NCBI GenBank assembly: GCA_001000675.1
Contig: LCHW01000001.1
Location: 218,294 to 282,293, forward strand
Source of the DNA: Candidatus Wolfebacteria bacterium GW2011_GWE2_44_13
GTDB lineage: Bacteria; Patescibacteriota; Minisyncoccia; UBA6257; UBA9933
Length of the DNA: 64,000 nt
Direction of reading: 5' to 3'
The notes below the pieces were generated by a model, which did not search any database, was not told where the DNA came from, and saw only the letters and a list, made by a program, of their open reading frames with translations. Numbering within the stretch: position 1 is the stretch's first letter; every line of letters begins with the position of its first letter. Of this stretch, positions 3,197-61,264 are shown in pieces. The translations under genes were made by a program, and so were the position numbers.

Positions 3197-3270
3197 TGCC
3201 AGATCGTCTAATGGTAGGACAGCGGACTCTGAATCCGTCAATCTTGGTTCGAATCCAGGTCTGGCAGCCA
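3197..3270 (+). tRNA. tRNA-Gln (anticodon CTG)
   Basis: Manual cloverleaf fold: U1:A72 acceptor TGCCAGA/TCTGGCA, U8, D-stem GTCT/GGAC, anticodon stem GCGGA/TCCGT with loop CTCTGAA, T-arm CTTGG-TTCGAAT-CCAGG, discriminator G and an encoded CCA. Confidence 0.8.
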
Positions 3271-3379
3271 ATTTGAGCGCGGTTATCGCGCCCGATTTCA
3301 TTATGGGCCTTGAGCGCCCTAGATGCAATCTAACTTCATTCTTAATCAATTCGTTTTAGCACAAAATATACAATAAAAT

Positions 3380-4663
3380 ATGAACCTAGTATTTCCAACA
3401 GAAGGCGAGGTAATTGATTTCTTTACTGTCCATACTGGGTATCTTGATGTTCATCGCATTTCTGAATTACTAGTAACTCATCAGCATGCCAACCTCCAAG
3501 AAAGTGAATGGAAACATATATATAAAGTCTTACACAAGCTTAAATCGGAAGGTTATTTATTAGTACAGAATGAGGGCGGAGATATATATAGTGAAAAATT
3601 TTCATCTACTCCAGACAGGATAGAAAAATTTAACGAGAGGAAGGCGAAGGATAAGGAATTCTATACAAATAAAAATAAAAATAGGGCGGGTACGGTTAAT
3701 TTCGATTATTCTAATAACAACGGCATATATTTTATTGGAGATGCTGATTACTTATTTGGCATTAAATTCTCATCTGCTTCTCAGGACTCTATCCATGTAT
3801 ATAATGATCATACCACTATTGATTACATTGCCTTAATAAAAAATGTTACCAATTTTGATCAAATAAATTTTAATATAAAATACGATGGAACTTCTCGATC
3901 ACGGAGTCCTGAAGTTGGACAGATAGTTTTATTTAAAAATAAAAATGGTAGATACGCTCTGATTAAAATTGAAGATATTAAAGTTGAAAACCGTGGAGAT
4001 AAAAATGACGAGGTCACTTTTTCATTTAAAATTCTCGATGATAAATATCCTGACCTAATCGTGGGCGAAGAAAGGTTCTCGGGAAATTTTTCTCTAAGTA
4101 AAAAAAGCAAGACTGACCTTGACGATAGCGTTGTAAGTGGGGATAAAATTATCGCTATGGGGATAGCTCAAGATCCAGCAAGAGAATCTTGGTACAAAAT
4201 ATCGTGGCCTATTTTTAGAAAGTTGCCAAAAAAAATTTTAGTAAGCATAATTTTCGTATCTATTTCCATAATTTTATTATTTGTTTTTGATTTTAATTTG
4301 GATAGTGTACAAATTGGTCCGTTAGGTTTTGCGCCTCCCAAGGAACAGATCGAAGAGATTCCTAAAAATATACAGGGAGAGGCTAAATTAATCGCAGATT
4401 CAATAGTGATTACAGGGTGGGAAGATCCCGGCGATTACATTGGCTATCTTAGTCAAATATCTTCTTTCTATCAGCGACATCAAGACATATATCCCGCAGA
4501 AGCTGCTACTTACAAGAGGCAATTAGTTGAATGGCAGGATAAATTGCAAAGAATAAATAATTCAGGAAGTACGATTTACAATTCTGATTTTAGGGTTTTG
4601 GAAGGATTAGTTAACTCAGCTCAAAGCCAATTAAGAAAAATTTCTACAATTATTAATCCTTAA
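3380..4663 (+). CDS. hypothetical protein with a central TM segment, in an AT-rich island
   Basis: Long ORF whose GC is lower than its surroundings. It contains one hydrophobic helix. No family was recognised. Confidence 0.5.
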   Translation: MNLVFPTEGEVIDFFTVHTGYLDVHRISELLVTHQHANLQESEWKHIYKVLHKLKSEGYLLVQNEGGDIYSEKFSSTPDRIEKFNERKAKDKEFYTNKNKNRAGTVNFDYSNNNGIYFIGDADYLFGIKFSSASQDSIHVYNDHTTIDYIALIKNVTNFDQINFNIKYDGTSRSRSPEVGQIVLFKNKNGRYALIKIEDIKVENRGDKNDEVTFSFKILDDKYPDLIVGEERFSGNFSLSKKSKTDLDDSVVSGDKIIAMGIAQDPARESWYKISWPIFRKLPKKILVSIIFVSISIILLFVFDFNLDSVQIGPLGFAPPKEQIEEIPKNIQGEAKLIADSIVITGWEDPGDYIGYLSQISSFYQRHQDIYPAEAATYKRQLVEWQDKLQRINNSGSTIYNSDFRVLEGLVNSAQSQLRKISTIINP

Positions 4664-6324: not shown

Positions 6325-6486
6325 ACTTTTGAAATTAATGGGGTCAGCTACCATTAATAATTATGTAATAAGAACAGAAAAATCGCCACATGGCGATTTT
6401 TCTGTAAGAGGCATTGAAAGAAGACTGACTGTGCACACGTACTAGTATATAGAAGCCGTAAACCTATTCACGAACCATTTTCTTAT

Positions 6487-8265
6487 ATGCACTCTATTAA
6501 AGAATATTTTCTCGCCCATAAAATCATCTCAATCGTTACCCTTATCGTTGTAGTATTTGCGGGGTATTGGGGGTATGGCAAGCTTACTGACACAAGTGCA
6601 GAACCACGTTATGTAACGGCAGCGGTGGAAAAGGGGACTTTGATTACTTCGATTACTGGAACCGGCCAAGTTTCCGCATCTAACCAGGTGGAATTAAAAG
6701 CAAAAGCGTCTGGCGATATCACTACTATTGCGGTTGTTAATGGACAAGAGGTTAAGGTGGGAGCACTTATTGTGCAGCTTGATGCGCGCGATGCGCAAAA
6801 GGCCGTACGCGATGCAGAAGTCAATTTGCAAAGTGCAAAATTATCGCTCGAAAAGCTCCGACAGCCTGCGGATACGCTTTCTGTGATTCAGTCGGAAAAT
6901 GCGTTGGCACAGGCACAACAAACAAAGCAAAACGCAGAAGATGACATCAAGAAAGCATACGATGATGGCTTCAATGCGATAGCAAATACATTTCTTGATA
7001 TCCCAACGATTATGACTGGGCTAGATGATGTATTTTTTTATGCAACAATCGATAAGGGAATGCCAAATATTAGTTGGTATATCAACCAGACATCAATCCA
7101 GGTTGCAGGGGAGCGCGAAAAGGCGATGCAAAACCAAGATGATTTTTATGCGGGATATAATGCATCGAGAGCGGCGTACACAAAAAACTTTGATGCCTAT
7201 AAGGCAGCTTCGAGAACGTCGAGTACGCAAACAATAGAGGCACTCATAGACGAAACGTATATGACCACGCGAACGATTGCCGATACGGTAAAGGCGGGCA
7301 ACAACCTTATCGACTTTGTAAAAGATTCTTTGACAAGAAACAATGTGAACGCAACCATTCCGGCAACAGTGGATGCGCATAAGGCAACATTAAATACATA
7401 CACAGGAACAACAAACGCGCACTTACTCAGCCTGCTTGCATTAAAGAGCACACTCAAGAGCAGTAGGGATGCAATTATAAATGCAGATCGAACGATAGCA
7501 GAAAAGACTGAATATATCGCAGACCTTAAGTCGGGCACTGACCCGCTCGATTTACAGGCACAGGAGTTGACTGTCCGACAGCGGGAAAATGCTCTACTTG
7601 ATGCGCGCGAGAAATTGGCCGATTATTATCTCCGAGCGCCTTTTTCTGGAACTATCGCAACATTGTCGATAAAATCATCCGACTCGATATCCTCTGGGTC
7701 TTCTATTGCAACGCTCATTACAAAACAAAAGCTTGCCGAAATATCACTTAACGAAGTTGACGTCGCAAAAGTGAAGGTGGGTCAAAAGGCAACCTTGGCA
7801 TTTGATGCGGTAGAAGGGTTGAGTATTAGCGGAGCGGTTGCCGAAATAGATACAGTAGGTGCCGTTTCTCAGGGTGTTGTGACGTATGTGGTAAAGATTG
7901 GATTTGATACGCAAGATGAGCGAGTAAAACCAGGAATGAGCGTTAGCGCTGCAATTATCACGGAAATGAAATCGGATGTTCTTACGGTCCCTAACAGTGC
8001 AGTAAAGACGCAAGACGATATCAGCTATGTTGAAATGTTTGAAGCGCCGCTTGAAAACGCGACGGGAACACAAGGTGCGATATCCTTGGTCGCTCCACAG
8101 CGAAAAACGGTAACAATAGGAATATCAAACGACACCATGACCGAAATCGTTTCTGGGCTACAAGAAGGAGATCAGATTATTACGCGGACGATAACGTCTT
8201 CTAACACGACTACGCAAACTGCCCCGAGTATATTCTCGACCGGAGGTGCGCGAATGGGTCGATAA
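6487..8265 (+). CDS. efflux transporter periplasmic adaptor (HlyD/MacA-like membrane fusion protein)
   Basis: N-terminal TM, a lipoyl/beta-barrel signature (ITGTGQV...ELKAK.SG.I) and long coiled coils. It sits immediately upstream of the ABC ATPase and permease. Confidence 0.75.
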   Translation: MHSIKEYFLAHKIISIVTLIVVVFAGYWGYGKLTDTSAEPRYVTAAVEKGTLITSITGTGQVSASNQVELKAKASGDITTIAVVNGQEVKVGALIVQLDARDAQKAVRDAEVNLQSAKLSLEKLRQPADTLSVIQSENALAQAQQTKQNAEDDIKKAYDDGFNAIANTFLDIPTIMTGLDDVFFYATIDKGMPNISWYINQTSIQVAGEREKAMQNQDDFYAGYNASRAAYTKNFDAYKAASRTSSTQTIEALIDETYMTTRTIADTVKAGNNLIDFVKDSLTRNNVNATIPATVDAHKATLNTYTGTTNAHLLSLLALKSTLKSSRDAIINADRTIAEKTEYIADLKSGTDPLDLQAQELTVRQRENALLDAREKLADYYLRAPFSGTIATLSIKSSDSISSGSSIATLITKQKLAEISLNEVDVAKVKVGQKATLAFDAVEGLSISGAVAEIDTVGAVSQGVVTYVVKIGFDTQDERVKPGMSVSAAIITEMKSDVLTVPNSAVKTQDDISYVEMFEAPLENATGTQGAISLVAPQRKTVTIGISNDTMTEIVSGLQEGDQIITRTITSSNTTTQTAPSIFSTGGARMGR

Positions 8266-19120: not shown

Positions 19121-19567
19121 ATGCCTGAAATAACATTTCAAAAAGCGACGATTGAGGATATTGATGCCTTTATCGCGATTGAACAAAAATCTGCACATTC
19201 GTATATGTATTCAAATTGTGCGGATAGGGAAGATGCCGAGGATGAGCTTAAAAATTGCGAGGTGTATTTTATTAAAAAAGATGGTGTGATTGTGGGGAGT
19301 ACAGAATACCAGATCAAAGAGCCCGGACATGCGTACATGAGCGGACTTGTTATCGACCCAGCTTTTCAAGGACAGGGCATTGCGAGAAAGGCGATCGAGT
19401 TTAAGCTTGAACAACTAAAGGACATGAAGCGAATCGATTTAGTAACCCATCCACATAACAGTAAGGTGATATGCATGTACCTTTCGTATGGATTTATTAT
19501 TGAGGCGTGGAAAGATAATTATTATGGCGATGGGCAGCCGAGGCTTGTGCTGGCGCTTAATCGATAA
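19121..19567 (+). CDS. GNAT family N-acetyltransferase
   Basis: Acetyl-CoA binding motif A (QGQGIARKA) within a GNAT-sized fold. Confidence 0.75.
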   Translation: MPEITFQKATIEDIDAFIAIEQKSAHSYMYSNCADREDAEDELKNCEVYFIKKDGVIVGSTEYQIKEPGHAYMSGLVIDPAFQGQGIARKAIEFKLEQLKDMKRIDLVTHPHNSKVICMYLSYGFIIEAWKDNYYGDGQPRLVLALNR

Positions 19568-19568
19568 T

Positions 19569-19597
19569 AAAAAAACCGTCTGAAACGGTTTTTTTAT
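19569..19597. terminator. Bidirectional intrinsic terminator
   Basis: A7-ACCGT-ctgaa-ACGGT-T7. Confidence 0.65.
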
Positions 19598-20052
19598 TAT
19601 GCGATTTTTAGTATTTCAAATTCGCGTTCTTTTGTGCCGACCATTCCTTTTGCGCGTTGTCCCACTGCCTTATTAAGAAAAAGTGCCCCTAGTGGAGATG
19701 CGTATGAAAGGGTCTGTTCTGTAAAGGTGATATGACTTCCGATGCGAAATGTTTTTTCTTCGCCTGTTTCGCTATCGCGTGCGGTAACGGTATGGCCGAT
19801 TGCTACGGCGGCGTTTGTTTTGGGGATAGCGATTATCGTGGCATTTCTGCGAATATGCTCAAGGTCTTGCAAGCGTTGCTCCAATAATCGTGCCTGTTGC
19901 TGGGCATTTTCAAAAGGGAAGTTATCGTGCCATGTTTCAGAAGATTGCGTTACGGCATTGCGCAATTCTGCTCCCGTTTCCTGTAATTTCACAATGGTTT
20001 CTTCGATATATGACTCAAGTATTTTTAGATCGTCTTCGAGAAAATAAGGCAT
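19597..20052 (-). CDS. greA: transcription elongation factor GreA
   Basis: N-terminal coiled coil (LT..G...L..EL) and a C-terminal FKBP-like domain. Start at the Met at 20052 (MPYFLEDD). The longer ORF-track start at 20124 would include leader repeats. Confidence 0.8.
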   Translation of the reverse strand: MPYFLEDDLKILESYIEETIVKLQETGAELRNAVTQSSETWHDNFPFENAQQQARLLEQRLQDLEHIRRNATIIAIPKTNAAVAIGHTVTARDSETGEEKTFRIGSHITFTEQTLSYASPLGALFLNKAVGQRAKGMVGTKEREFEILKIA

Positions 20053-21838: not shown

Positions 21839-22276
21839 ATGAAATTTTTCATAGCGTCACCGTGGAAAAATAAGGAGCAGGTAGAGGAGCTTACCCAGGA
21901 ATTGGAGCAATTAGGGCACACTGCATATTCTTATGTGCAGAGCGGATCTAACCTGTTAACAGGAAAGCCTATTGAGGATGAAATGAAGGAATTTAGTCAG
22001 GCATTAACCAATTGGAAGATCGATGATCGCATTGGAAAAATTGCACAGTCTGAAATTCAGGCATTGCGAGAATCTGATATTGTTATTCTGCTCCTCCCTG
22101 CGGGAGATTCCTCGCACATGGAAGCGGGTATCGGATATGGAATGGGAAAGCGAATGGTGTTAATCGGACCAGTTGAAAAACCAGAAATCATCTATACATT
22201 GTTTAATCATGTGTATCTTGATATCAGTTCATTCTTGAAAGCATTTTCATTTGTTGAGCATAAAGATACTGCATAA
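21839..22276 (+). CDS. nucleoside 2-deoxyribosyltransferase-like protein
   Basis: Flavodoxin-like pattern of the NDT superfamily (ASPW...DIVILLLPAGDSSHMEAGIGYGMGKRMVLI). Start at the ATG at 21839. The longer ORF-track start overlaps fmt antisense. Confidence 0.45.
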   Translation: MKFFIASPWKNKEQVEELTQELEQLGHTAYSYVQSGSNLLTGKPIEDEMKEFSQALTNWKIDDRIGKIAQSEIQALRESDIVILLLPAGDSSHMEAGIGYGMGKRMVLIGPVEKPEIIYTLFNHVYLDISSFLKAFSFVEHKDTA

Positions 22277-22306
22277 AAATACCGCCCCATTGGGCGGTAT
22301 TTTTAT
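22277..22306. terminator. Bidirectional intrinsic terminator inside a 19-bp inverted repeat
   Basis: CTGCATAAAAATACCGCCC-catt-GGGCGGTATTTTTATGCAG. Confidence 0.65.
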
Positions 22307-22830
22307 GCAGTATCTTCTGTGTCAGATTCAACTGTTCCTTCGTGTAGGTTCTGTGCCTTGTCGATAAATACAATTCCGTTGAGATGATCAACTTCGTGTT
22401 GGAACACGCGTGCAATTAATCCAGTCGCGCGTATGGTTACGGCACGTTGGTGTTTATCAAATCCGGTAAGTACGATTTCTTTTGGACGGGTTACTGTGCC
22501 ATACGTATTAGGAACGCTGAGGCAGCCTTCCTCCATGGTAAACTGTTCTTTTGAAGGGCGTTCAATTTTTGGATTGAATATAGCATACCACTTTGGGCGG
22601 CCGTTTCTTTGTGGGATTCCTGCGACAAATAATTGCATGTCGAGCCCTACTTGGTTTGCGCTAAGCCCAACGCCATTTGCACGACGCATAATTGAGCGCA
22701 TGGTATTTACCAGTTCGCGAACTTCCTTCTCTGTATATTTTGAGAAATCAAAATTAGCCGGTCGTTTCCTGAGAAACTTTTCCTCCGACTTGTTGCTTAT
22801 CGTCCAAATTTGCTGATCGCTCGTTATCAT
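22303..22830 (-). CDS. def: peptide deformylase
   Basis: Motifs GVGLSANQVG, EGCLSVP and HEVDHLNG. Confidence 0.85.
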   Translation of the reverse strand: MITSDQQIWTISNKSEEKFLRKRPANFDFSKYTEKEVRELVNTMRSIMRRANGVGLSANQVGLDMQLFVAGIPQRNGRPKWYAIFNPKIERPSKEQFTMEEGCLSVPNTYGTVTRPKEIVLTGFDKHQRAVTIRATGLIARVFQHEVDHLNGIVFIDKAQNLHEGTVESDTEDTA

Positions 22831-23170: not shown

Positions 23171-23221
23171 TAGTATACATTTGTTCTCTAAATTTGTCTA
23201 GGGGCTGTACGGGTAAAATAT

Positions 23222-23285
23222 GTCATTCCCGCGGAGGCGGGAATCCACGGTATTTCATAGATTCCCGCCTCCGCGGGAATGACAA
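23222..23285. repeat. Inverted pair of the small palindromic repeat unit (copies 3a and 3b)
   Basis: gtcattcccgcggaggcgggaatcca, 13 nt, then attcccgcctccgcgggaatgacaa. The pair can form a 25-bp hairpin. Confidence 0.65.
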
Positions 23286-26677: not shown

Positions 26678-27091
26678 ATGGATAATCAGAATTTTGAAGC
26701 AGCAACACCAGAGACAAGCCAAATCGAATCGGATCTTAATCGTGTCAAGCAAGCTGTGCATGAACAAACAGGAGGAAGTGCAACGCCCGAAGTAACGGAG
26801 CGCGCGTTGGTGCGTCAGTCGTTGCAACCCATGGTTAATATAGCTAGTACTCCTGCTCCGACGCAGCAGACGCACGCGGCAGCGGATGACGCGATGCTCC
26901 CTGAATATCTAAAGGATGCTTCACCGGAAATAAAAGATCGTGTTGAGCGGCTTGTTGAAGATGCTTTTGCAAATGGCGTTGAGCACGCTGCTATTGCTGC
27001 GCAAGCATTTGGACCGTTTGTTGTAGATGCATTGCATGATGCGCTTTCGGATCGATTTTATGAGGAGTTGCAAAAACGAAAATTCGTCTAA
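26678..27091 (+). CDS. hypothetical protein
   Basis: ORF only. No motifs were recognised. Confidence 0.4.
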   Translation: MDNQNFEAATPETSQIESDLNRVKQAVHEQTGGSATPEVTERALVRQSLQPMVNIASTPAPTQQTHAAADDAMLPEYLKDASPEIKDRVERLVEDAFANGVEHAAIAAQAFGPFVVDALHDALSDRFYEELQKRKFV

Positions 27092-27122
27092 TATGCAACA
27101 CATGACACTGGCCGACTACTGT

Positions 27123-27203
27123 GTTGTGGGTCCCCATTACCTCAGTCGAAGCACTACTGTGCATCTTCCTCGCTAATGCTCCCACGCCTTGTATTCGACT
27201 CAG
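27123..27203 (+). promoter_or_regulatory. Conserved 5' element E1, upstream of the VirD4/TraD-like ATPase gene
   Basis: About 92% identical to 33418-33498. Both copies end exactly 39 bp before their downstream ATG. A terminal stem GTGGG/CCCAC can form. Confidence 0.55.
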
Positions 27204-27241
27204 TCTCATGTGTTGTATAGGTTTGTTAGTATCTTATTTAT

Positions 27242-33095: not shown

Positions 33096-33389
33096 ATGGC
33101 AATTGTACTTGAAGGAGAAAAAAAGAATATTGATTGGAGTTTTGCGCTCGGGACAGTGGTTGTAGTTGGTATCGTTGGAGCCTCTATAATCTATTTGTTT
33201 TTTGTGAGCCCAGAAACAGTGCAACAACTCACGACTCCTGAGCAACGCACGTTGAGCGAGTTTTCAAAAACTTCTTTTAAGCCTGAAGAAATTTTAAATA
33301 GTGCTGCGTTTCAGGAACTGCGAACTGTGGCGCCGCTTACGAGCCCGACGGAAGAGGAGGTGGGGAAAATAAACCCTTTCCTTCCTTAA
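33096..33389 (+). CDS. small single-TM protein, possibly a PilP-like accessory component
   Basis: 97 aa with one TM helix. It sits last in the pilMNO sub-cluster. Confidence 0.35.
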   Translation: MAIVLEGEKKNIDWSFALGTVVVVGIVGASIIYLFFVSPETVQQLTTPEQRTLSEFSKTSFKPEEILNSAAFQELRTVAPLTSPTEEEVGKINPFLP

Positions 33390-33417
33390 AATTTTCTACG
33401 GCTGGTGCACTCCTTCG

Positions 33418-33498
33418 TTGTGGGCCCCCATTACCTCGGTCGAAGCACTATCGTGCATCTTCCTCGCTAATGCTCCCACGTCTTGTATTGCACTCAAG
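33418..33498 (+). promoter_or_regulatory. Conserved 5' element E2, upstream of pilB
   Basis: A paralogous copy of 27123-27203, with identical 39-bp spacing to the start codon. Confidence 0.55.
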
Positions 33499-33536
33499 CG
33501 TAAAAAATTTCTCAACTTTATTTTCGAACGAACTTT

Positions 33537-40979: not shown

Positions 40980-41384
40980 ATGAAATTATCCCACTCAAAA
41001 TTTAAGAATCAGCGAGGACAGGCTATGATTTTGACCGTGCTCGTACTTTCGAGTATTGTGCTTTCTCTCTCTGCTATTGGCGGCTATTTAATGATGGTTC
41101 GATTACGAGTAAGTACTGATATCGGCAACACGATGCGCGCAATTTATATTGCAGATGCGGGGCTTGGATGCGAAGCATACAATCATTTTAAAAATGCGGA
41201 TGCTCCCGGGTTTTGCGCTCCTGGCACTGAACGAAATACATTTACGTTTGACGGAACGGTTGCGGATGCACCAAGCTTTTATCACGAAACAGAAACAATT
41301 TCTGCTGGTGTAGATTCCCGTATCAACGCAAAAGGGTATGCACGAACAGCAAGTCGCTCGTTACATCTCGAGTTCGGGTTTTAA
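40980..41384 (+). CDS. PilX-like minor pilin
   Basis: PilX N-terminal-like segment QRGQAMILTVLVLSSIVLSL. Confidence 0.45.
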   Translation: MKLSHSKFKNQRGQAMILTVLVLSSIVLSLSAIGGYLMMVRLRVSTDIGNTMRAIYIADAGLGCEAYNHFKNADAPGFCAPGTERNTFTFDGTVADAPSFYHETETISAGVDSRINAKGYARTASRSLHLEFGF

Positions 41385-41442: not shown

Positions 41443-41582
41443 ATTTATCCCCACACCAATCATCGATTGCGAAGCAGTATTAAAGACGTCTTATGAAAGG
41501 CAGTTTTTATTATTATACGGTGCTGGGGTGTGTAATAATAACTTCGAAATGATTATCGATAATTGGTGTGGGGATTTATTTT
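41443..41582 (+). promoter_or_regulatory. leuS leader bounded by a 23-bp long-range inverted repeat
   Basis: ATTTATCCCCACACCAATCATCGAT (41444-41468) is the reverse complement of ATCGATAATTGGTGTGGGGATTT (41556-41578). A hairpin CCCGCC-N15-GGCGGG sits upstream. Confidence 0.3.
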
Positions 41583-41637
41583 GGGGGTAAAATGGGATAT
41601 AGTTATATACATCATATAACCAGCTAGCGACATTATT

Positions 41638-44463
41638 ATGCAATTCAAAAACGTTGAAAAAAAGTGGAGAGCCGTTTGGGAGAAAGAGGGAATATACACC
41701 GTTAAAGATTCTGTCCCTGGCAAGAAGAATTTTTATAGTATGGTCATGTTTCCGTATCCATCTGGCAACCTGCATATTGGCCATTGGTATAACTTTGGTC
41801 CTGCGGATGTTTTTGCGCGTTTTAAGCGCATGACAGGGTTTAACGTCTTCTCCCCAATCGGATTTGATGCGTTTGGATTGCCTGCAGAAAATGCGGCTAT
41901 TAAAAATGGCATACATCCAAAAACGTGGACGTATAAAAATATTAAAACAATGACTGCTCAACTAGAGCAGATGGGCACGATGTATGATTGGGAGCGACGT
42001 GTTGTTACCGCTGACCCCGAATATTATAAATGGACGCAATGGATGTTTTTGCAGTTGTTTCATGCAGGACTTGCGTATCGCACAAAAGCGAAAGCAAATT
42101 GGTGTCCGAAAGATCATACTGTATTGGCAAATGAACAAGTTATTGATGGAAAGTGTGACCGATGTGGTACGGAAGTTGTACAGCGAAATATTGATCAGTG
42201 GCTTTTTAAAATTACTGACTACGCAGAGCGATTGCTGCAAGATCTTGAAGGGCTGGATTGGCCTGAAAAAACAAAGACCATGCAACGCAATTGGATTGGA
42301 AAATCCGAAGGCGTTACTATTAATTTCCCCCTCGTAACAAGCGAGGCAGTTGCGGTTGTCGATACTATGAAATTTAACCCATCGCTTGTGTCTTTGGTAC
42401 TTTCGGGAGAAAAATATATTAGCTATCGCTTAGAACCTAAACATATAAAGGTAGGGGATGTTTGCGGTTTAGTGCACGCGGGGACAAAAAAGCAGTTTGC
42501 ACTTGCCCGCATTACGGGAGTGGAAAAGCGCACCATGGGTGAGCTATCCGAACAAGAAGTTGGACACGAAAAATTTGCAAATCGCAAAGCGATGTACACA
42601 ACATATGCGAAGTACTACGGGAAGCCGGTTACAAATACTACGGATGTCTGGGTGTATACGTTCGAATGCATGCCTGAATCTGTTGCGGTGTTTACTACTC
42701 GAGTGGATACTATTTATGGATGTACGTATGTTGTTGTTGCGCCGGAACATGCATTAATTGAATCGTTTAAACAGCAAATCGAAAATTATAAAGCGGTTGC
42801 GACGTATGTAACTAAGTCGCGTAAAAAATTGGAGCGTGAGCGAATTATTGAAGAAAAAGAAAAGACAGGCGTTCGACTGCAGGGCGTTTCTGCAATCAAC
42901 CCATTTACGGGAGAAAGCGTTCCTGTGTTTGTTGCCGATTATGTGTTAGGGGGATATGGAACGGGTGCGGTCATGGCCGTTCCTGCACACGATGAACGTG
43001 ATTTTATATTTGCAAAACAATTTTCATTACCAATCAAAACGTCGATTGTTAATGCAAAAAAAGATGTGTCTGCTGGTTGCATGATGGACGATGGAACGCT
43101 CGTTGATTCGGAAGCATTTACGGGTATGGATTCAGCTACTGCGCGTACTCAGATGACGGCATGGCTCGAACAACAGAAGATGGGTGCGGGGAAAGTTAAT
43201 TATAAGCTACGTGATTGGCTTATTTCTCGTCAGCGCTATTGGGGATCGCCTATCCCGCTTGTATTTTGTGAACATTGCAAACAACGTATTGCAAGCGGTG
43301 ATTATAAGAAAGGGGAATTTACACAAGGAGAGCTATCCAACCCAGGATGGGTTGGCGTTGCGTCGGAAGCACTTCCCGTGCTTTTGCCATTAGTGAAGGA
43401 ATATTTACCGACTGAAGATGGTAAGTCGCCGTTGGCACATTCTAAGTCGTTTATGCGCGCTACGTGCTCAAAATGTGGCGGTAAAGGTATGCGAGAAACA
43501 GATACTATGGATACATTCGTGTGCTCTTCGTGGTACTATTTGCGCTATCCCGATCCGCAGAATGCAAAACAATTTGCGGATAAGAAAAAGCTCGCAGCGT
43601 GGCTGCCTGCCGATATGTATGTTGGTGGAGCGGAACATTCCGTTTTGCACCTTCTCTACGCACGCTTTTTTACGAAGGCACTGTATGATTTGAAGCATGT
43701 GCCATTTAAAGAACCGTTTGCTGCGTTGCGACACCAAGGGATGATTCTTGGACCTGATGGGCAGAAGATGTCGAAATCAAAAGGTAATGTGATTGATCCG
43801 GATGAGCTTGTTGGTACATTTGGTGCTGACGCAGTGCGTATGTACCTTTGTTTTATGGGTCCGTATGATCAAGGGGGAGCGTGGCAGCCAGGGGGAATGG
43901 TTGGTATTGCTCGATTTTTGCAACGCGTAGAGTCTCTGTACACTACGAATGCAAAAGATAGCGTGTGCAAAAAACCAAGCACCGCAGTCAATCCTTTGAA
44001 GAAGGTAATGCATCAGACGATAAAGAAAGTTACCGAAGATATTGCTGATTTTCATTTTAATACCGCAATAAGTTCGTTGATGATTTTACTCAATACGATG
44101 GATGAATATCGAGAACATCTTGATGGTGAGGTGCTCGAACAGTTCCTCTTATTGTTAGCGCCATTTGCACCTTATATTGCAGAGGAGTTATATCGAGAAG
44201 CGTTGGGACAAAAGAAATCGATTCACTTGGCATTGTATCCGAAATACAATCCTCATTTTACTGTGGAAAATGAATTCGATCTTGTTGTCCAAATTAATGG
44301 CAAGGTTCGTGATACTATTCGAGTGCCGAAAGGTATTACGCAAGAGCGAGCACGTGAGCTTGCGCTTACTTCGAAAAAAGTATTTGCCGTTGCTCCAGGT
44401 ATGCAGGTGCGAAAGGTTATCTTTGTGCCTGATCGATTGATTAATCTTGTTGTTGAATTATGA
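41638..44463 (+). CDS. leuS: leucyl-tRNA synthetase with a ~105-aa ASCH (YqfB-like) domain inserted at the start of the CP1 editing domain
   Basis: HIGH motif (HIGH is HIGHW here), a KMSKS-like motif (KMSKSKGN), the CP1 editing motif (TTRVDTIYGCTYVV) and the anticodon-binding domain. The inserted segment (aa ~233-349) aligns with YqfB-type ASCH domains. Confidence 0.9.
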   Translation: MQFKNVEKKWRAVWEKEGIYTVKDSVPGKKNFYSMVMFPYPSGNLHIGHWYNFGPADVFARFKRMTGFNVFSPIGFDAFGLPAENAAIKNGIHPKTWTYKNIKTMTAQLEQMGTMYDWERRVVTADPEYYKWTQWMFLQLFHAGLAYRTKAKANWCPKDHTVLANEQVIDGKCDRCGTEVVQRNIDQWLFKITDYAERLLQDLEGLDWPEKTKTMQRNWIGKSEGVTINFPLVTSEAVAVVDTMKFNPSLVSLVLSGEKYISYRLEPKHIKVGDVCGLVHAGTKKQFALARITGVEKRTMGELSEQEVGHEKFANRKAMYTTYAKYYGKPVTNTTDVWVYTFECMPESVAVFTTRVDTIYGCTYVVVAPEHALIESFKQQIENYKAVATYVTKSRKKLERERIIEEKEKTGVRLQGVSAINPFTGESVPVFVADYVLGGYGTGAVMAVPAHDERDFIFAKQFSLPIKTSIVNAKKDVSAGCMMDDGTLVDSEAFTGMDSATARTQMTAWLEQQKMGAGKVNYKLRDWLISRQRYWGSPIPLVFCEHCKQRIASGDYKKGEFTQGELSNPGWVGVASEALPVLLPLVKEYLPTEDGKSPLAHSKSFMRATCSKCGGKGMRETDTMDTFVCSSWYYLRYPDPQNAKQFADKKKLAAWLPADMYVGGAEHSVLHLLYARFFTKALYDLKHVPFKEPFAALRHQGMILGPDGQKMSKSKGNVIDPDELVGTFGADAVRMYLCFMGPYDQGGAWQPGGMVGIARFLQRVESLYTTNAKDSVCKKPSTAVNPLKKVMHQTIKKVTEDIADFHFNTAISSLMILLNTMDEYREHLDGEVLEQFLLLLAPFAPYIAEELYREALGQKKSIHLALYPKYNPHFTVENEFDLVVQINGKVRDTIRVPKGITQERARELALTSKKVFAVAPGMQVRKVIFVPDRLINLVVEL

Positions 44464-44612
44464 CAAAATATATCGGCGTAATTATCGCATGGATCATTAT
44501 CCTTGGTATTGCACTCTATATTGTGCGTCACTACGCAGATTTTCTTGGCGGGTTTTCTACTGCGCAGGATGCAATAAACGCAGGAGGGATATTTGATAAA
44601 TACTTCAAGTAA
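44460..44612 (+). CDS. possible 50-aa small membrane protein overlapping the leuS stop
   Basis: ATGA overlap with the leuS stop. One hydrophobic helix. Below the ORF-track size cutoff, so speculative. Confidence 0.25.
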   Translation: MTKYIGVIIAWIIILGIALYIVRHYADFLGGFSTAQDAINAGGIFDKYFK

Positions 44613-44650
44613 GCAATAAAAAAGCGACCGTGGGGCCGCTTTTTTATTGC
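44613..44650. terminator. Bidirectional intrinsic terminator (leuS / htrA convergent)
   Basis: GCAATAAAAAAGCGACCG-tgg-GGCCGCTTTTTTATTGC, a long imperfect hairpin with A/T runs. Confidence 0.6.
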
Positions 44651-45718
44651 TTACTTTTTTTCCGCTAATTTTGGCGATAACGTGTATAATTTTTTCTTAC
44701 GCATGACCGTGAGATTTATTGTGTCTCCGACTGTATAGTTTTCTAACAGTTCTCCAAGCGTTTTCTTTTGAGTTATTTGTTCTGCATTGCATTCGAGAAT
44801 CAAATCATGATCTTTGAGGCCGGCAATTGCTGCAGGACTTTTATCGATAATGCTTTTCATGTACGCATTGGGGCTAATAACAAGCGCACCATAATCGACA
44901 GGAAGCTTTAGCTTTTCTTGGATCTTTTCGTTGATAGTAATGTAATGCACACCAAGAAATGGTTGTCGAATTCTTCCGTACAACTGTAGGTCGGCAAGAT
45001 CCTTTATAAGCGTATTAATGGGAAGTGCAAACCCGATATTTTGTGCGCCTTGAATAATAGCAACGTTAATACCGATTACTTTTCCTGCGCTATTGATTAA
45101 TGGTCCGCCGGAATTTCCAGGGTTGATTGCTGCATCAGTTTGAATAAGCCCGTGAATTTCTTGTACAGGAGAGTGTAGGTCTATTTGTGCCGTAATTGCA
45201 CGCGAAAGGCCAGAGATAATTCCCTTGGAAACGGTGTTTTGAAACATACCTAAAGCATTTCCTACGGTGATAACTGGTTCACCCAGTTCAAGATGCGCTG
45301 AATCGCCTAATGTAAGGAACGGAAAGGCTCCTGGACCCTTTATTTTTAAAATAGCAATGTCACTCAAGGGGTCACGCGCTAGTATGGTTGCGGGATATAT
45401 TGTCCCATCGTTTGTTATAACGGTATAGAAGTTCTTTGTTTCGCTAACGATATGTCGGTTACTTACGACAATGCCTGATGGATCAACAATAAAGCCAGAG
45501 CCATTACCAACTTTAAGCAAGCCATTTTTATCGGTCTGTTGCTTCAAAAAGCCAAGTTCGCGGCGCTTGAGCCATAGGGGGATTTTGGGAAACTGTTCAG
45601 CCTCTTTTTCGATTTCCCCGAATTTTTTCGATACAACGATTGTTACTGTTGCTGGTATGACTTTTTTGACCACCGATACGAAATTGTCTGTGTGTTCCAT
45701 ATGCATATATTGTAGCAT
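44651..45718 (-). CDS. htrA: HtrA/DegP-family serine protease with a PDZ domain
   Basis: Catalytic triad context (HIV...D...GNSGGPL) and a C-terminal PDZ. Confidence 0.8.
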   Translation of the reverse strand: MLQYMHMEHTDNFVSVVKKVIPATVTIVVSKKFGEIEKEAEQFPKIPLWLKRRELGFLKQQTDKNGLLKVGNGSGFIVDPSGIVVSNRHIVSETKNFYTVITNDGTIYPATILARDPLSDIAILKIKGPGAFPFLTLGDSAHLELGEPVITVGNALGMFQNTVSKGIISGLSRAITAQIDLHSPVQEIHGLIQTDAAINPGNSGGPLINSAGKVIGINVAIIQGAQNIGFALPINTLIKDLADLQLYGRIRQPFLGVHYITINEKIQEKLKLPVDYGALVISPNAYMKSIIDKSPAAIAGLKDHDLILECNAEQITQKKTLGELLENYTVGDTINLTVMRKKKLYTLSPKLAEKK

Positions 45719-53104: not shown

Positions 53105-53130
53105 GATTCCGGCTTCCGCCGGAATGACAA
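53105..53130. repeat. Small palindromic repeat unit (GC variant ATTCCGGCG), copy 4a
   Basis: gattccggcttccgccggaatgacaa. It is inverted relative to copy 4b. Confidence 0.6.
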
Positions 53131-53193
53131 TACAAAAATACAGCACAAAGATAAGCATCCATATTTTAAGAGGAAGGTTGAGCTCCTTCGTGT

Positions 53194-53219
53194 GTCATTC
53201 CGGCGGAGGCCGGAATCCA
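53194..53219. repeat. Small palindromic repeat unit, copy 4b
   Basis: gtcattccggcggaggccggaatcca. With 4a it brackets a 63-bp AT-rich spacer. A partial unit also occurs at 53521-53535. Confidence 0.6.
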
Positions 53220-53280
53220 GTACAATAAGAACATGAAATAATATTACGTATATATCCTTGCGAGTAAGCGCAACGGTACA

Positions 53281-53517
53281 TTGTATATAGGCGTGACCAA
53301 TGATTTAAAGAGGCGAGGGTATAAGCATAAAGAAAAACTGGTAAAAGGGTTTACGAAAGTGTATAGCGTGGACAAGCTGGTTTATTTTGAAATGACAGAA
53401 AATATAACAAGCGCAATCGAAAGAGAAAAGCGGTTAAAGGAGTGGAATAGAAAGTGGAAATTAAAGTTAATTGAAAAAGAAAATCCCGAATGGAAAGATT
53501 TATATGGGATGCTCTAA
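53281..53517 (+). CDS. small GIY-YIG nuclease family protein (UPF0213/COG2827-like), N-terminus apparently truncated
   Basis: Motifs YIGVTNDLKRR...H...K...E. The family-typical residues YYVYILASKRNGTL are encoded in-frame upstream from 53242, but they follow a stop and have no ATG/GTG/TTG start. The only available start is the TTG at 53281. Confidence 0.55.
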   Translation: MYIGVTNDLKRRGYKHKEKLVKGFTKVYSVDKLVYFEMTENITSAIEREKRLKEWNRKWKLKLIEKENPEWKDLYGML

Positions 53518-54029
53518 CCTGGATTCCGGCCGGAGTTTATCCATGAACCATGGGGGTGAGCTTGTCGAACCATTGCCGAGCGGGCTCAAAGTGACAATAC
53601 AAGAACATAGAGCAAATCCCACTGTTGTAAGATTCTGACCTCCCTGCTAATCGACAGGGAGGCGCCAAAAATGACGATGGGGGCGGTCGTCCACCACCGT
53701 CATTTTCGGGAGGGTTTTGAGGTTCGTTCTTGTCGAGCAATGTGTTACTGGAATTAATTTCTAGGGTTGCTGGGTCGTGTAAAAATGGATTTTCCTATTG
53801 TGCGAGTAACGTAAGTCGCGTATACTTAAAGAAGTATTTTATACGTGGGTAATAAAAATAAATAAAGATCGAGCCTTCCTCTTGCGCGGAAACAATCGAT
53901 ACGCTTGCTCTCCTGCGATACTCTTGCGTGCATCGTTGAGCAATTATAGAAAATCTGTCATCTCCTGTTGCGAGATTATTTTTTGTTTTTATCTCTGTAT
54001 AATAAATTCTTATGTCCGTGCGTTTGCCT

Positions 54030-54073: not shown

Positions 54074-54079
54074 GTGTAT

Positions 54080-54326
54080 GAGCGGGTAAAGGGAAGCGCC
54101 TACAAGTCTTGTCTCGCCCTGCCTACCGGCAGGCAGGCGTCGCTCAACAAGCTCGCAGGCCGCCCCTGACTTGGCGTTGCTAGCGAGCGAAGTGAGCGTG
54201 CAACGTGCCGAAATGCCGGCGGAATATAGGGTTATAGTGAAGCCGGCCGCGATACGTCCTGCTGGACGCATATCGCTGCGGTCTTCGATTCCCTACACGA
54301 GTGAAGCAGTTCACTCGTTTTACCCG
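54080..54326. other. GC-rich (~60%) 250-bp structured element bounded by inverted copies of the tRNA-Gly 3' end. It is probably an integration scar, a miniature element or an unidentified ncRNA.
   Basis: Left end gagcgggtaaagggaa is identical to 54367-54382 of the adjacent tRNA gene. The right end ttcgattccct[23-nt hairpin]tttacccgc is the same tRNA 3' end in the opposite orientation. The interior contains several perfect hairpins. Confidence 0.5.
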
Positions 54327-54330
54327 CAAA

Positions 54331-54366
54331 CATAATAAAGCCCCAAAGGGCTTTATTATGTTTTTT
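54331..54366. terminator. 16-bp perfect palindromic hairpin flanking tRNA-Gly
   Basis: AAACATAATAAAGCCC-caaa-GGGCTTTATTATGTTT followed by T6. Confidence 0.5.
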
Positions 54367-54367
54367 G

Positions 54368-54438
54368 AGCGGGTAAAGGGAATCGAACCCTCGCTTCAAC
54401 CTTGGGAAGGTTGCGCACTACCACTATGCAATACCCGC
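54368..54438 (-). tRNA. tRNA-Gly (anticodon CCC)
   Basis: Manual cloverleaf fold on the minus strand: acceptor GCGGGTA/TACCCGC, D-stem GCAT/GTGC, anticodon stem CAACC/GGTTG with loop TTCCCAA, T-arm GAGGG-TTCGATT-CCCTT and discriminator U. CCA is not encoded. Confidence 0.8.
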
Positions 54439-55409: not shown

Positions 55410-57449
55410 ATGGCCTTTTATTTTCGAAGTATGGCAAAAAAAGCAGAAAACATCGAAGAATTACCTCAAGAGGAGAAAGAAGTAAAGAAGGTCGCTACTA
55501 AAAAAGGAGACGATCCTATTGATAACCGTGGAAATGCTTCCTATAGCGCCAAGGATATTCAGGTACTCGAAGGTTTAGAGCCTGTGCGTAAGCGCCCAGG
55601 TATGTATATCGGTTCAACGGGGTCGCAAGGGTTGCACCATCTTATTTGGGAAGTGTTCGACAACTCGCTCGACGAGGCTATGGCAGGATATGCCAAGCAC
55701 ATTACGGTAGAGCTTGGAAAGGATGGGTCTGTTACGGTGTCCGATGATGGACGTGGTATCCCTGTCGACATTCATCCGAAGACGAAAAAGTCTGCGCTTG
55801 AAACAGCCGCAACAACCTTGCACGCAGGAGGAAAATTTGATGGCGATTCGTATAAGGTATCTGGTGGTTTGCACGGGGTAGGACTTTCGGTTGTAAACGC
55901 GCTTTCCACATGGATGAAGATAGAAGTGTGCAAAGATGGTTCGAAGTATATGCAGGAGTACCGAATCGGTAAGCCGTTAGCTGATGTTAAAAAAATTGGC
56001 AAAGCTGAGCGAGGAAACGGAACAAAGGTTACGTTCAAGCCAGATGATACTATTTTTTCTACTCTTGAATTTGAGCGAAAAGAAATTGTCGGGCACTTGC
56101 GCCAGCAGGCGTTTCTTACTAAGGGTATCCGCATTGAAATTATCGATAGTCGAGAAGATGTGCCTTTTTACTACTCGTTCTATTTTGAAGGAGGACTTGT
56201 TTCATTTGTACAATATGTGAATAGCAGTCATACCCCCGTACATAAAGAGGTTTTTTATGTACATCGCAGCTACGAAGATATCGATGTTGAAACGGCATTT
56301 ATTTATAACGACGATCCCGATGCGCGTGAATTGAGCTTTGCAAACAATATTTATACACCTGACGGTGGTATGCATGTTACCGGTTTTCGCACTGCTTTGA
56401 CTCGTGTATTAAATGACTTTGCTCGAAGCAACAATGCAATAAAAGGATCAGATGAAAACCTAACAGGTGACGATGTGCGCGAGGGCATCACCGCAATTAT
56501 TTCTGTAAAATTGCGCGACCCACAATTTGAAGGACAGACAAAAGCTCGCCTTGGAACGCCTGCAGCACGCGGCGCAGTTGAATCTGTTGTATCGGAAGGT
56601 CTTAAAGAATATTTTGAAAAATATTCAAACGATGCAAAGGCAATCATTGAAAAATGTATGCTTGCGCAGAAAGCTCGTAAAGCTGCAAAGGCTGCAAAAG
56701 AAACCGTATTGCGTAAGGGAATGCTCGAGGGCATGACCTTGCCAGGAAAGCTTTCAGATTGCTCGAGCCGCAAAGCCGCTGACTCGGAACTCTATATTGT
56801 TGAGGGAGATTCCGCAGGAGGAAGTGCAAAGCAGGGAAGAGATCGCCGCTTTCAAGCCATTCTTCCTTTGAAGGGAAAGATTTTAAACGTTGAACGAGCC
56901 CGTTTGGATAAGATGCTTGTTAACAATGAAATCAAGTCATTGGTTATTGCATTGGGCACTGCTATTTCGGATAGCTTTGATATCGAGAAGTTGCGCTACC
57001 ATAAGGTTATCCTTATGACCGACGCCGATGTTGACGGTGCGCACATCAGAACATTGTTGCTAACATTGTTTTATCGATATTTCCGACAAATTATTGAAGG
57101 AGGATTTTTGTATATTGCACAACCACCATTGTTCCGATTACAGATTGGAAAGGATGTTCGCTACGTGTATACTCCTGAGCAGAAAGATACCGCAATCGCA
57201 GAAATGACTGCAGGGAAAAAAGGTGAAGCGAATGTTAATGTGCAGCGCTATAAGGGTCTTGGAGAAATGAACCCTGACCAGCTGTGGGAAACGACCATGA
57301 ACCCTGAATTTCGAACTCTATTGCAAGTCGCTATCGATGATGCACAAGAGGCAGATCGATTGTTTGAAATCTTAATGAGTGACGAGGTTGCCCCGAGAAA
57401 ACAATTCATCCAGTCAAAAGCTACTCTTGTAAAAAATCTCGACATCTAA
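55410..57449 (+). CDS. gyrB: type IIA topoisomerase ATPase subunit, DNA gyrase subunit B (ParE not strictly excluded)
   Basis: GHKL ATPase motifs (EVFDNSLDEAMAGY, GGLHGVGLSVVNALS), a TOPRIM domain (EGDSAGGSA), PLKGKILNVE and C-terminal GyrB motifs. Confidence 0.8.
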   Translation: MAFYFRSMAKKAENIEELPQEEKEVKKVATKKGDDPIDNRGNASYSAKDIQVLEGLEPVRKRPGMYIGSTGSQGLHHLIWEVFDNSLDEAMAGYAKHITVELGKDGSVTVSDDGRGIPVDIHPKTKKSALETAATTLHAGGKFDGDSYKVSGGLHGVGLSVVNALSTWMKIEVCKDGSKYMQEYRIGKPLADVKKIGKAERGNGTKVTFKPDDTIFSTLEFERKEIVGHLRQQAFLTKGIRIEIIDSREDVPFYYSFYFEGGLVSFVQYVNSSHTPVHKEVFYVHRSYEDIDVETAFIYNDDPDARELSFANNIYTPDGGMHVTGFRTALTRVLNDFARSNNAIKGSDENLTGDDVREGITAIISVKLRDPQFEGQTKARLGTPAARGAVESVVSEGLKEYFEKYSNDAKAIIEKCMLAQKARKAAKAAKETVLRKGMLEGMTLPGKLSDCSSRKAADSELYIVEGDSAGGSAKQGRDRRFQAILPLKGKILNVERARLDKMLVNNEIKSLVIALGTAISDSFDIEKLRYHKVILMTDADVDGAHIRTLLLTLFYRYFRQIIEGGFLYIAQPPLFRLQIGKDVRYVYTPEQKDTAIAEMTAGKKGEANVNVQRYKGLGEMNPDQLWETTMNPEFRTLLQVAIDDAQEADRLFEILMSDEVAPRKQFIQSKATLVKNLDI

Positions 57450-57480
57450 TTAAGAATGCATTTTGTCAACAAATCGTTGC

Positions 57481-57548
57481 GTTGCGGGTCCCCAGTGCTT
57501 CGGTTGCCGTATTGATAATACGTCGCCCTTGCACTGTTCCCGCGCCTT
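57481..57548 (+). promoter_or_regulatory. Divergent third member (E3) of the E1/E2 element family, upstream of secE-nusG-rplK
   Basis: Same 68-nt length. Ends GTTGCGGGTCCCCA...TTCCCGCGCCTT are conserved and the middle is divergent. The terminal stem GCGGG/CCCGC covaries with GTGGG/CCCAC of E1/E2. Confidence 0.3.
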
Positions 57549-57671
57549 ATGCTTTATTCGACAAAATGTATTCTCACCGCATTGCTGGCTAATGTGTGCT
57601 AACCATATAAAACCTTGCATTTTACTGGGGTTTAGTGTATGGTAATTACTGTCTAACATATTATATATATT

Positions 57672-57857
57672 ATGGTTTCACGTCTTACTTCCTATTTCAG
57701 AGAATCACAACTCGAACTCAAGCGGGTTAATTGGCCTACTCGACAAGAAACGGTGCGGTTAACGAGCATGGTTATTGGACTTTCGCTTATATTTGCCGTA
57801 TTTTTGGGCATTTTGGATATGGTATTTAACTATATTCTTGTTCAATACTTCATCTAA
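57672..57857 (+). CDS. secE: preprotein translocase subunit SecE
   Basis: 61 aa with a single C-terminal TM helix. Its position upstream of nusG fits. Confidence 0.7.
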   Translation: MVSRLTSYFRESQLELKRVNWPTRQETVRLTSMVIGLSLIFAVFLGILDMVFNYILVQYFI

Positions 57858-57912: not shown

Positions 57913-58506
57913 ATGACTGAAACATCATCACATCAAACTCCAGAAAAAAAGGCTGAAAAGAAGGAGCTTTCTCAGAAGGGGGAGCGACACTGGTACGCGG
58001 TACACACCTATTCGGGTTATGAGGATGCCGTTGCGCGTTACTTGAAACAGCGTGTTGATTCCTTGGAAATGGACGATAAGATATTCAACGTCGTCGTTCC
58101 AAAGGAAAAAAGCATTAAGATAAAAAACGGAAAGCGAAAGGAGTCTGAAGAAAAAATATATCCTGGTTATGTACTTGTTGATATGGTCATGAGTGAAGAC
58201 TCATGGTATGTTGTCCGCAATACACCACGCGTTACCGGTTTCGTTGGATCTGATTCTACTGAGCCAACACCATTGTCAAAAGAAGAAGTAGATTTCCTCA
58301 TTGCTCGCATGGAGGGCGGTGAAAAGAAAATTAAATTGGATTATGTGGTAGGAGAATCGGTAAAGATTTCAGATGGTCCATTTAAAGATTACGAAGGAAA
58401 GATAAGTGAAATTGATCAAGAACACGCAAAAATAAAGGTGCTTGTACCGATCTTCGGACGAGAAACTGCTGTCGAGCTTGATTCCTTGCAGTTGCAAAAA
58501 ATATAA
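57913..58506 (+). CDS. nusG: transcription termination/antitermination factor NusG
   Basis: NGN domain (WYAVHTYSGYE) and a C-terminal KOW motif (VGESVKISDGPFKDYEGKI). Confidence 0.85.
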   Translation: MTETSSHQTPEKKAEKKELSQKGERHWYAVHTYSGYEDAVARYLKQRVDSLEMDDKIFNVVVPKEKSIKIKNGKRKESEEKIYPGYVLVDMVMSEDSWYVVRNTPRVTGFVGSDSTEPTPLSKEEVDFLIARMEGGEKKIKLDYVVGESVKISDGPFKDYEGKISEIDQEHAKIKVLVPIFGRETAVELDSLQLQKI

Positions 58507-61225: not shown

Positions 61226-61264
61226 AAATAAAAACGCCTCGACTTCGGTCGAGGCGTTATTTTT
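61226..61264. terminator. Bidirectional intrinsic terminator
   Basis: AACGCCTCGAC-ttcg-GTCGAGGCGTT flanked by A and T runs. Confidence 0.65.

Follow-up and report, generated by a model that had tools for sequence, protein, structure and literature searches.

A covarying hairpin element between gyrB and secE of a Wolfebacteria contig, and its apparently uncatalogued family in Patescibacteria genomes

We analysed a stretch of DNA of 64,000 nucleotides (the window), whose NusG and PilB proteins have their named relatives in Candidatus Wolfebacteria, and in which the junction between gyrB and secE holds a long imperfect hairpin, here called E3. gyrB occupies an open reading frame (ORF) at 55410-57449 with GyrB Pfam domains, and its TAA stop codon (57447-57449, + strand) lies 3 nt before the first paired base of E3, which by its fold and by covariance models takes up 122 nt of the + strand at 57453-57574. 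secE, encoding 61 aa, follows on the same strand at 57672-57857, and then nusG at 57913-58506. A promoter-like site, TTGCAT-17-TATGGT, lies downstream of E3 at 57615-57643 (+); it rests on sequence conservation, being kept in relatives with and without the element, and a generic promoter scan did not call it. Together with two further copies in the window, E1 and E2, E3 belongs to what is apparently an uncatalogued family of hairpins of about 122-128 nt in genomes of Patescibacteria (the Candidate Phyla Radiation, CPR).

The hairpin of E3 has a minimum free energy (MFE) of -46.7 kcal/mol (z = -6.2 against shuffles) and forms all five helices of the family. Its outer stem consists of a 5' arm with helices P1 (57453-57469) and P1b (57471-57477), which pairs with the 3' arm at 57549-57574. 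Enclosed by these arms is a conserved core of 68 nt (57481-57548, +), which starts with GTTGCGGGTCCCCA and ends with TTCCCGCGCCTT. Read in order, the core contains GUUG; helix P2, whose 5' arm (U)GCGGG (57483-57488) pairs with CCCGC(G) (57539-57544); a C-rich loop; the covarying helix P3, CAGTGC (57493-57498) with GCACTG (57531-57536); a pyrimidine loop; the apical stem-loop P4 (57508-57522), CGTATT / AATACG around a 3-nt loop, where the family consensus is GUAY...RUAC; and a return strand ending GCGCCUU. The initial annotation of this DNA had given E3 a length of exactly 68 nt, which is right for the core and holds for the cores of E1 and E2 on the same strand as well. As the extent of the whole element this length falls short, and the 'closing stem' described there is P2, well inside the hairpin.

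E1 is complete at 27092-27219 (+; core 27123-27190, 68 nt), with an MFE of -47.5 kcal/mol and z = -4.4. It begins 1 nt after the stop of a 137-aa ORF (26678-27091) and ends 22 nt before a gene for a TraG/VirD4-like ATPase at 27242. E2 is complete at 33389-33510 (+; core 33417-33484, 68 nt), with an MFE of -35.9 kcal/mol and z of about -4; it overlaps the stop of a 97-aa ORF (33096-33389) and 26 nt separate its end from pilB at 33537. When folded with their flanks, E1, E2 and E3 each form one long imperfect hairpin of about 122-128 nt, and their outermost 15-20 bp are wholly different in sequence yet paired in each. A 14-mer at the 5' end of the core, with Y allowed at two positions, occurs in the window only at 27123, 33417 and 57481, always on the + strand and always with the 3' motif at the matching distance, and none of 100 dinucleotide-preserving shuffles of the window carries both end motifs at the 42-nt spacing. 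The conserved ends described initially thus recur in all three copies above random frequency, although the 3' consensus TYCCC proposed for them fits only E3, E1 and E2 reading CTCCC. The shuffles, together with the covariance-model scores below, rule out chance similarity between the three.

Members elsewhere were sought by scanning 185,579 species genomes with the pattern GTTGNGGGNCCCCA-N30-60-TNCCCNCGNCTT. Ten matches were found, six of them in genomes labelled Paceibacterota, Saccharibacteria, Wolfebacteria, Nomurabacteria (two) and Kaiserbacteria, and a seventh (L008) on a 1-Mb chromosome labelled Gammaproteobacteria that we suspect to be CPR. These seven share features that the pattern did not ask for, namely an interior of CTCAGTC..CGTA, a loop and TACGCCTCCTTCG, and complementary flanking arms; the remaining three are high in G+C and have nothing in common with the seven. 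The same pattern gave 24 further loci in metagenomes. Under a covariance model (R1), members score 78-135 bits, E3 among them with 118, while no chance match exceeds 16 bits. A second model (R2), built from 24 members outside the window and run over the window with filters off, scored E3 at 95.1 bits (expectation value 8e-26), E1 at 89.8 and E2 at 88.9, the next match in the 64 kb reaching 15.4 bits. Since R2 contains no window sequence and ranks E3 at the top, E3 is a typical member and E1 and E2 are a sub-type, which reverses the initial description of E3 as a divergent copy with an unrelated interior. Indeed, the interior of E3, TTCGGTTGCCGTAT..ATACGTCGCCCTTG, follows the family consensus and is of the type of locus L001 (TTCGGTCGTCGTAT..ATACGCCTCCCTCG), to which it is about 70% identical; E1 and E2 resemble another locus, L003.

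We then have an alignment of 30 members: the three of the window, 17 from the pattern scans and 10 found by synteny together with the covariance model, drawn from genomes labelled Wolfebacteria, Nomurabacteria, Kaiserbacteria and Saccharibacteria. The model match is 136-141 nt long in every one. In the consensus, an outer stem of about 25 nt per arm, unconstrained in sequence and conserved in pairing and length, leads through a small internal loop (..GU / CCUU) to a G+C-rich P2 (UGYGGG / CCCRCG); above it come a C-rich loop, the covarying P3, a pyrimidine-rich internal loop CUC(R)GUC.. / ..CUCC(U)UCG and the short apical hairpin GUAY / RUAC. Because the scan pattern fixed the end motifs, their conservation in the 17 pattern-scan members is by construction. 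The constant positions are therefore those borne out by the 10 members found by synteny and covariance model, namely GUUGC.., GGG/CCC and GCGCCUUG; the 'CCCCA' loop varies (CCCAG, CCCUA, CCUAA and CCCUG).

Across the alignment, 91.8% of paired cells can pair, compared with 65.6% when partners are shuffled (0 of 500 shuffles reach the observed value) and 31-48% when one side is slid by 1-3 columns. Changes on both sides occur in 30 of the 35 pairs. They include compensatory changes in all 21 pairs of the outer stems P1/P1b, which the search pattern had left free, and in all four pairs of P3 (helix 4 of the model). The P2 change from GTGGG:CCCAC to GCGGG:CCCGC, noticed at the outset between E1/E2 and E3, is real: the pair concerned is C-G in 25 members and U-A in five, the latter from several unrelated loci, and the pairs after it are G-C almost throughout. 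On the + strand all 30 members have a U.G pair at the base of P2, even two copies whose P2 is otherwise changed to GCUG.C/G.CAGC. The covariation is thus very strong, extends to further copies and reaches stems that the search could not have imposed, and, as read from aligned sequences, it supports a selected, structured element family, as the single stem change had suggested.

In most of the 30 loci the stem starts 0-10 nt past the stop codon of a co-oriented ORF, while the distance from the element to the next gene ranges from 5 to more than 300 nt. By our own tally from the gene maps, members within tandem gene pairs are co-oriented with the genes in 24 cases and opposed in one; five lie between convergent genes and none between divergent genes. 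The sole opposed member (L026, 1929-2068) separates atpA from atpG, and in this case alone a sense transcript would contain the purine-rich strand. Neighbouring genes are varied and include gyrB, murB/secA, secY, secG, rplU, rpoB, pnp, pilC/pilin, pilT, atpA, an ABC permease and transketolase. As regards the replication strand as a possible basis of this orientation, the window has a GC skew of +0.10 throughout and its elements read on the G-rich strand; in the short loci the skews are mixed and confounded by gene strand.

This placement resembles that of intrinsic terminators, which likewise abut or overlap stop codons, precede the next promoter and occur between convergent genes. The window itself holds canonical bidirectional terminators (A-tract, G+C stem, T-tract) at 22263-22316, 44607-44656, 19564-19600, 737-767, 61227-61264, 6374-6405 and 54328-54363, and the stems of the one at 22263-22316 overlap the stop codons of the flanking ORFs, so this is the usual place for 3'-end structures here. 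The family differs in being four to five times longer, in having conserved loop sequences and in placing several copies inside apparent operons. As ordinary terminators share its placement, the family fills a 3'-end niche without being the default terminator.

Orthologous junctions in relatives, retrieved via NusG and PilB homologues, show that the element comes and goes. At gyrB-secE, a close relative (L039, NusG 94% identical) has the gyrB TAA, 5 nt and then TTGCAT-17-TATGGT-aattactgtctaac, that is, the promoter-like block of 57615-57643 with no element; L038 (NusG 81%) has an 84-nt spacer and no element, and L040-L049 have no room for one. L035 and L037 (NusG 85%) carry a diverged member (78 bits) in the same place, followed by the same promoter block. 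E3 thus lies upstream of a secE promoter that element-free relatives keep, and it is dispensable at this junction. In the cluster of pilus and type IV secretion system (T4SS) genes, the E2 site is filled in all relatives examined (24-64 bits), visibly decaying in L050 (24 bits), and the E1 site is filled in L053. Extra members stand at the pilT-pilC junction of L050, L051 and L053, which is empty in the window, at a bPH-ORF junction (L053) and after a 226-aa ORF (L051). All copies in this cluster in relatives are co-oriented with the genes. A 40-aa ORF called at 4169-4291 of L050, on the hairpin of its E2-site element (4153-4289), is probably spurious. Filled and empty junctions (L039, L038, and pilT-pilC and bPH-ORF in the window) were compared, and they reveal no target duplication, residual hairpin or repeat; insertion into a pre-existing terminator hairpin is ruled out by the empty junctions, which have no residual hairpin. 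A TGCATTTT repeat flanking E3 was considered as a target duplication; it is not reproduced in L035 and is probably due to chance. The pilB-pilT spacers of L053 (11741-11896) and L051 (1937-2129), 156-193 nt compared with 86 nt in the window, were also tried as family members and rejected, as they hold a promoter-like region and an unrelated hairpin: both contain a conserved, promoter-like GGAATATGGTATACTAAT block with an extended -10, and the hairpin in L051 is strong (z = -4.8).

These observations bear directly on the idea, put forward in the initial annotation, that the elements mark the 5' regions of pilus-motor operons and of secE-nusG-rplK, possibly as cis-regulatory leaders. All three window copies do precede a gene on the same strand (traG-like, pilB and secE), and relatives have further copies in the pilus cluster. 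However, E3 lies upstream of the conserved secE promoter, only 3 nt past the gyrB stop, and the family in general hugs the upstream stop and not the downstream start. Moreover, an opposite-strand gene follows in 6 of the first 20 members, the downstream genes are functionally unrelated, and relatives lack the element at the same junction. We therefore consider a leader or operon marker extremely unlikely. The association with pilus genes is real, with extra copies at pilT-pilC and other junctions of that cluster in relatives, although it is not exclusive.

Our best explanation, held tentatively but as quite possible, is that the element is an RNA module co-transcribed with the upstream gene, at whose 3' or intercistronic end it lies, that its stalk and loops are recognised by a factor, and that it serves 3'-end definition and not as a leader of secE. 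The mRNA of the upstream gene would carry the element as its tail, either 3'-terminal or intercistronic, and the element would fold into a rod, whose long paired stalk and conserved pyrimidine-rich loops may be recognised in trans. The factor could be a double-stranded RNA nuclease (RNase III, for example), an RNA-binding protein specific for the loops, or both; an outer helix of about 20 bp or more is the substrate type for nucleases of the former kind. Processing ('punctuation'), shielding against 3' exonucleases or termination assisted by a factor could then define the mRNA 3' end, and neighbouring transcription and translation units would be insulated. More speculatively, a ribosome terminating at the abutting stop might melt the lower stem and so couple the state of the element to translation of the upstream gene.

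Several observations weigh against this explanation. We detected no terminator-like site at E1, E2 or E3 and no T-run in the 3' flanks of members; with no U-tract after the hairpin, the element is not a canonical intrinsic terminator. The element-free relatives at the same junction and the decaying copy in L050 imply that the benefit per site must be small, and the trans-acting factor is hypothetical. Further points concern the strand. A more stable fold is predicted for the reverse complement in each of the 20 members tested (sum -1207 compared with -997 kcal/mol), and likewise in a consensus fold (alifold; -54.0 for the minus and -46.8 for the plus strand). For the conserved inner loop, the minus strand would give C-G, G.A, A.G, G-C, G.A, A.G, G.U, C-G, with two tandem G.A/A.G pairs, whereas 71% of the unpaired positions on the + strand are pyrimidines (C 576, U 509, G 255, A 189), which is unusual for a functional RNA. 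In line with this bias, + strand mismatches are Y.Y in 37 cases and R.R in 15, and the elements have a GC skew of -0.16 in a window with a positive one.

It could thus be argued that the functional molecule is the minus strand, either as an antisense structured RNA of about 125 nt or as a single-stranded DNA (ssDNA) hairpin. Apart from its more stable fold, such a molecule would have the purine-rich loops that are usual in structured RNAs, and the outer arms contain 41 G.U pairs on the minus strand compared with 14 on the plus strand. However, this wobble asymmetry is weak for the outer stems in the model-based alignment (18 G.U and 27 A.C), and the energies of the consensus helices alone are nearly equal on both strands (-27.7 and -28.8), so that the strand asymmetry lies in the loops. 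The invariant U.G of the + strand would become C.A. Nor did an alignment of 21 members reveal a conserved -10 or -35 in the 70 nt ahead of the minus-strand hairpin, and the operon-internal copies (at pilT-pilC, before pilB and before the traG-like gene) lie about 17-30 nt from the next start codon, which leaves no room for an antisense promoter and makes the sense mRNA the only transcript likely to cover them. Generic promoter scans at the elements were negative or uninformative. We regard a functional minus strand as improbable and tentatively favour the sense (+) RNA, with unusually pyrimidine-rich loops, as the functional molecule.

A different view is that the family is a duplicative or selfish palindromic DNA element with the lifestyle of REP/REPIN, ERIC or Correia sequences, spread by an ssDNA hairpin or by gene conversion and tolerated in spacers. 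This would account for an occupancy that varies among close relatives at gyrB-secE, pilT-pilC and bPH-ORF, for the decaying copy in L050, and for several copies per genome, at least five in one Wolfebacteria lineage. It would also fit a better-folding strand that is the one not expected to be transcribed; the orientation bias would then arise because the purine-rich orientation (GGAGG) is harmful in sense transcripts, or from strand-specific insertion. Further evidence of this kind comes from E1 and E2. Their 68-nt cores differ at only 5 positions and their cores are 84-93% identical, whereas identity between their outer arms is 42-48%. Over 94 nt, the core of E2 matches E1 at 84%, but the relatives' copies at the E2 site at only 55-63%, while the 5' outer arm of E2 is 74% identical to that of L050. 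The two cores therefore appear to be recent copies of each other, a pattern that would be explained if the core was replaced by gene conversion or re-insertion and the local outer stem kept, and we infer that cores are copied between sites within a genome. Such homogenisation is occasional, as the five known copies in the lineage of CP011209.1, a 984-kb Wolfebacteria chromosome (L003 on CP011209.1 itself, and L053a-d, assigned to the lineage because their contigs carry the same PilB protein), are only 59-75% identical.

Against a selfish element stand the unconserved termini, the filled and empty sites without target-site duplication, and a core conserved across differently labelled CPR lineages with compensatory changes. 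Copy number is low and copies within a genome are mostly about 65-75% identical, unlike active repeats. Moreover, the outer stems differ fully between copies yet pair at a conserved length, which fits selection on structure and not copying. No associated transposase or RAYT-type gene was identified among the Pfam-scanned flanking genes, no systematic search having been made, and viral contigs gave no exact match to the search pattern, which also led us to drop a phage origin. A selfish palindrome is, in our judgement, a doubtful explanation, less probable than a co-transcribed 3'-end module.

ERIC and REP palindromes are about 35-130 bp long and occupy transcribed intergenic regions, often just after stop codons, where they are thought to affect mRNA stability or processing when co-transcribed. 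Like ERIC (IRU) and REP/BIME sequences, the elements described here are imperfect palindromes, several per genome, whose presence differs between relatives. They differ in having no sequence similarity to these, a low copy number, unconserved outermost arms around an internal core that is conserved across CPR-labelled lineages with compensatory changes, and neither terminal repeats nor target duplications. The family is thus closest to ERIC/REP-type palindromes in lifestyle and to terminators in position, and lacks the conserved termini and target duplications that define the former and the U-tract that defines the latter. RsaE/RoxS-type RNAs, regulatory RNAs with C-rich loops in Gram-positive bacteria, are each encoded by a separate gene that has its own promoter and terminator, and pair with Shine-Dalgarno sequences; they too carry unpaired C-rich motifs (CCCC, CCUCC) on a stable hairpin, but the element has no evident promoter. 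The starts that we inspected (secE 57672, nusG 57913, rplK 58528, pilB 33537 and the traG-like gene 27242) have no recognisable Shine-Dalgarno sequence and lie behind A+T-rich leaders, a point of relevance if the element's CCUCC were to be read as an anti-Shine-Dalgarno mimic.

Rfam 15 and ARAGORN gave no family for the element. In the whole window only two tRNAs reach an Rfam gathering score, and nothing does so at E1-E3; a permissive scan (expectation value up to 10) found nothing overlapping E3, its one match there, AfaR, lying downstream at 57600-57698 with 16.6 bits against 100, and over E1 only far sub-threshold matches, the best being rncO with 17 bits against a gathering score of 43. 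tRNA-Trp often precedes secE, and a tRNA was therefore considered at E3, but neither ARAGORN nor Rfam finds a cloverleaf there; ARAGORN calls only tRNA-Gln (3197-3270) and tRNA-Gly (54367-54438) in the window and none at the element. An integron attC site was rejected, since GTTGCGG/GTTGTGG fail the RRR of GTTRRRY, lie inside the hairpin and not at its ends, and have no complementary box (RYYYAAC) at the other end. Resemblances by eye to signal recognition particle RNA, 5S rRNA, group II intron domain V, the K-turn, and the hammerhead and hairpin ribozymes failed as well. We found no description of the family in searchable full text, nor on inspection of the 224-motif paper PMC5737381, and no described CPR non-coding RNA family like it in the literature searched.

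The elements also resemble Rfam orphan motifs and small ribozymes (twister-sister, RAGATH) in their conserved internal-loop nucleotides, covarying helices, many copies and lack of a fixed gene association, the difference being that the family matches no Rfam 15 model on either strand at expectation values up to 10. It is conceivable that the element is catalytic, either as a self-cleaving ribozyme or as another 'punctuation' RNA cutting between cistrons. The conserved nucleotides are confined to internal loops with freely covarying helices on either side, and a genome carries several copies, which are co-oriented with genes and spread over unrelated contexts, a distribution similar to that of twister, hammerhead and pistol ribozymes. 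However, no Rfam ribozyme matches even in the permissive scan, the sense-strand loops are rich in pyrimidines, unlike the purine-dependent cores of known small ribozymes, and the rod-like shape has no evident junction or pseudoknot. We consider catalysis very unlikely. A broader proposal, which we think unlikely though less so, is that the family is a functional RNA class, possibly ancient and specific to Patescibacteria, whose loops form a factor-binding site or a catalytic core and which provides the 'punctuation' of polycistronic mRNAs.

Other structured features were seen in and around the window. A second, unrelated palindromic repeat family (TGTCATTCCCGCGGAGGCGGGAATC and variants) occurs in the window at 23221-23284 and 53105-53217, in L051 at about 3345-3375 and about 8140-8170, and in the flank of L012. 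In the window, one repeat pair flanks a small GIY-YIG-like ORF (about 53230-53520) on its upstream side, and in relatives copies of this repeat directly follow members of the hairpin family. A long hairpin of about 130 nt at 41447-41575, with arms ATCCCCACACCAATCATCGAT / ATCGATAATTGGTGTGGGGAT and 87 nt between them, sits between ORFs at 40980-41384 and 41638-44463; its sequence is unrelated to the E1/E2/E3 family, and R2 gives only 10 bits (expectation value 8) in its vicinity, at the neighbouring 41607-41720. Finally, about 250 nt at 54076-54330 begin with GAGCGGGTAAAGGGAAGCGCC, which is nearly identical to the 3' end of the adjacent tRNA-Gly (54367-54438, minus strand). This region may be a second tRNA gene with an intron (compare PMC13011429). 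ARAGORN and the permissive Rfam scan made no call at 54076-54330.

To conclude, we describe here an element of about 125 nt with covarying helices, whose core is common to four CPR-labelled groups and which is absent from Rfam 15. Patescibacteria make up a very large and mostly uncultured share of bacterial diversity, and the element offers a concrete new entry point to them. The family could enter genome annotation, where gene callers now place spurious small ORFs on its members, and it provides a testable handle on how transcripts are delimited and processed in reduced genomes. Its evolution is unusual, combining a conserved core and a free outer stem with gain and loss of the whole element and apparent copying of cores between sites. 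If it proves to be merely a tolerated repeat, it would still be a useful marker for comparing CPR genomes at strain level. Were the broader proposal of a functional RNA class to be true, these tiny genomes would possess a sequence-specific means of cutting or capping polycistronic mRNAs at gene boundaries, in particular in core housekeeping operons and the type IV pilus cluster.

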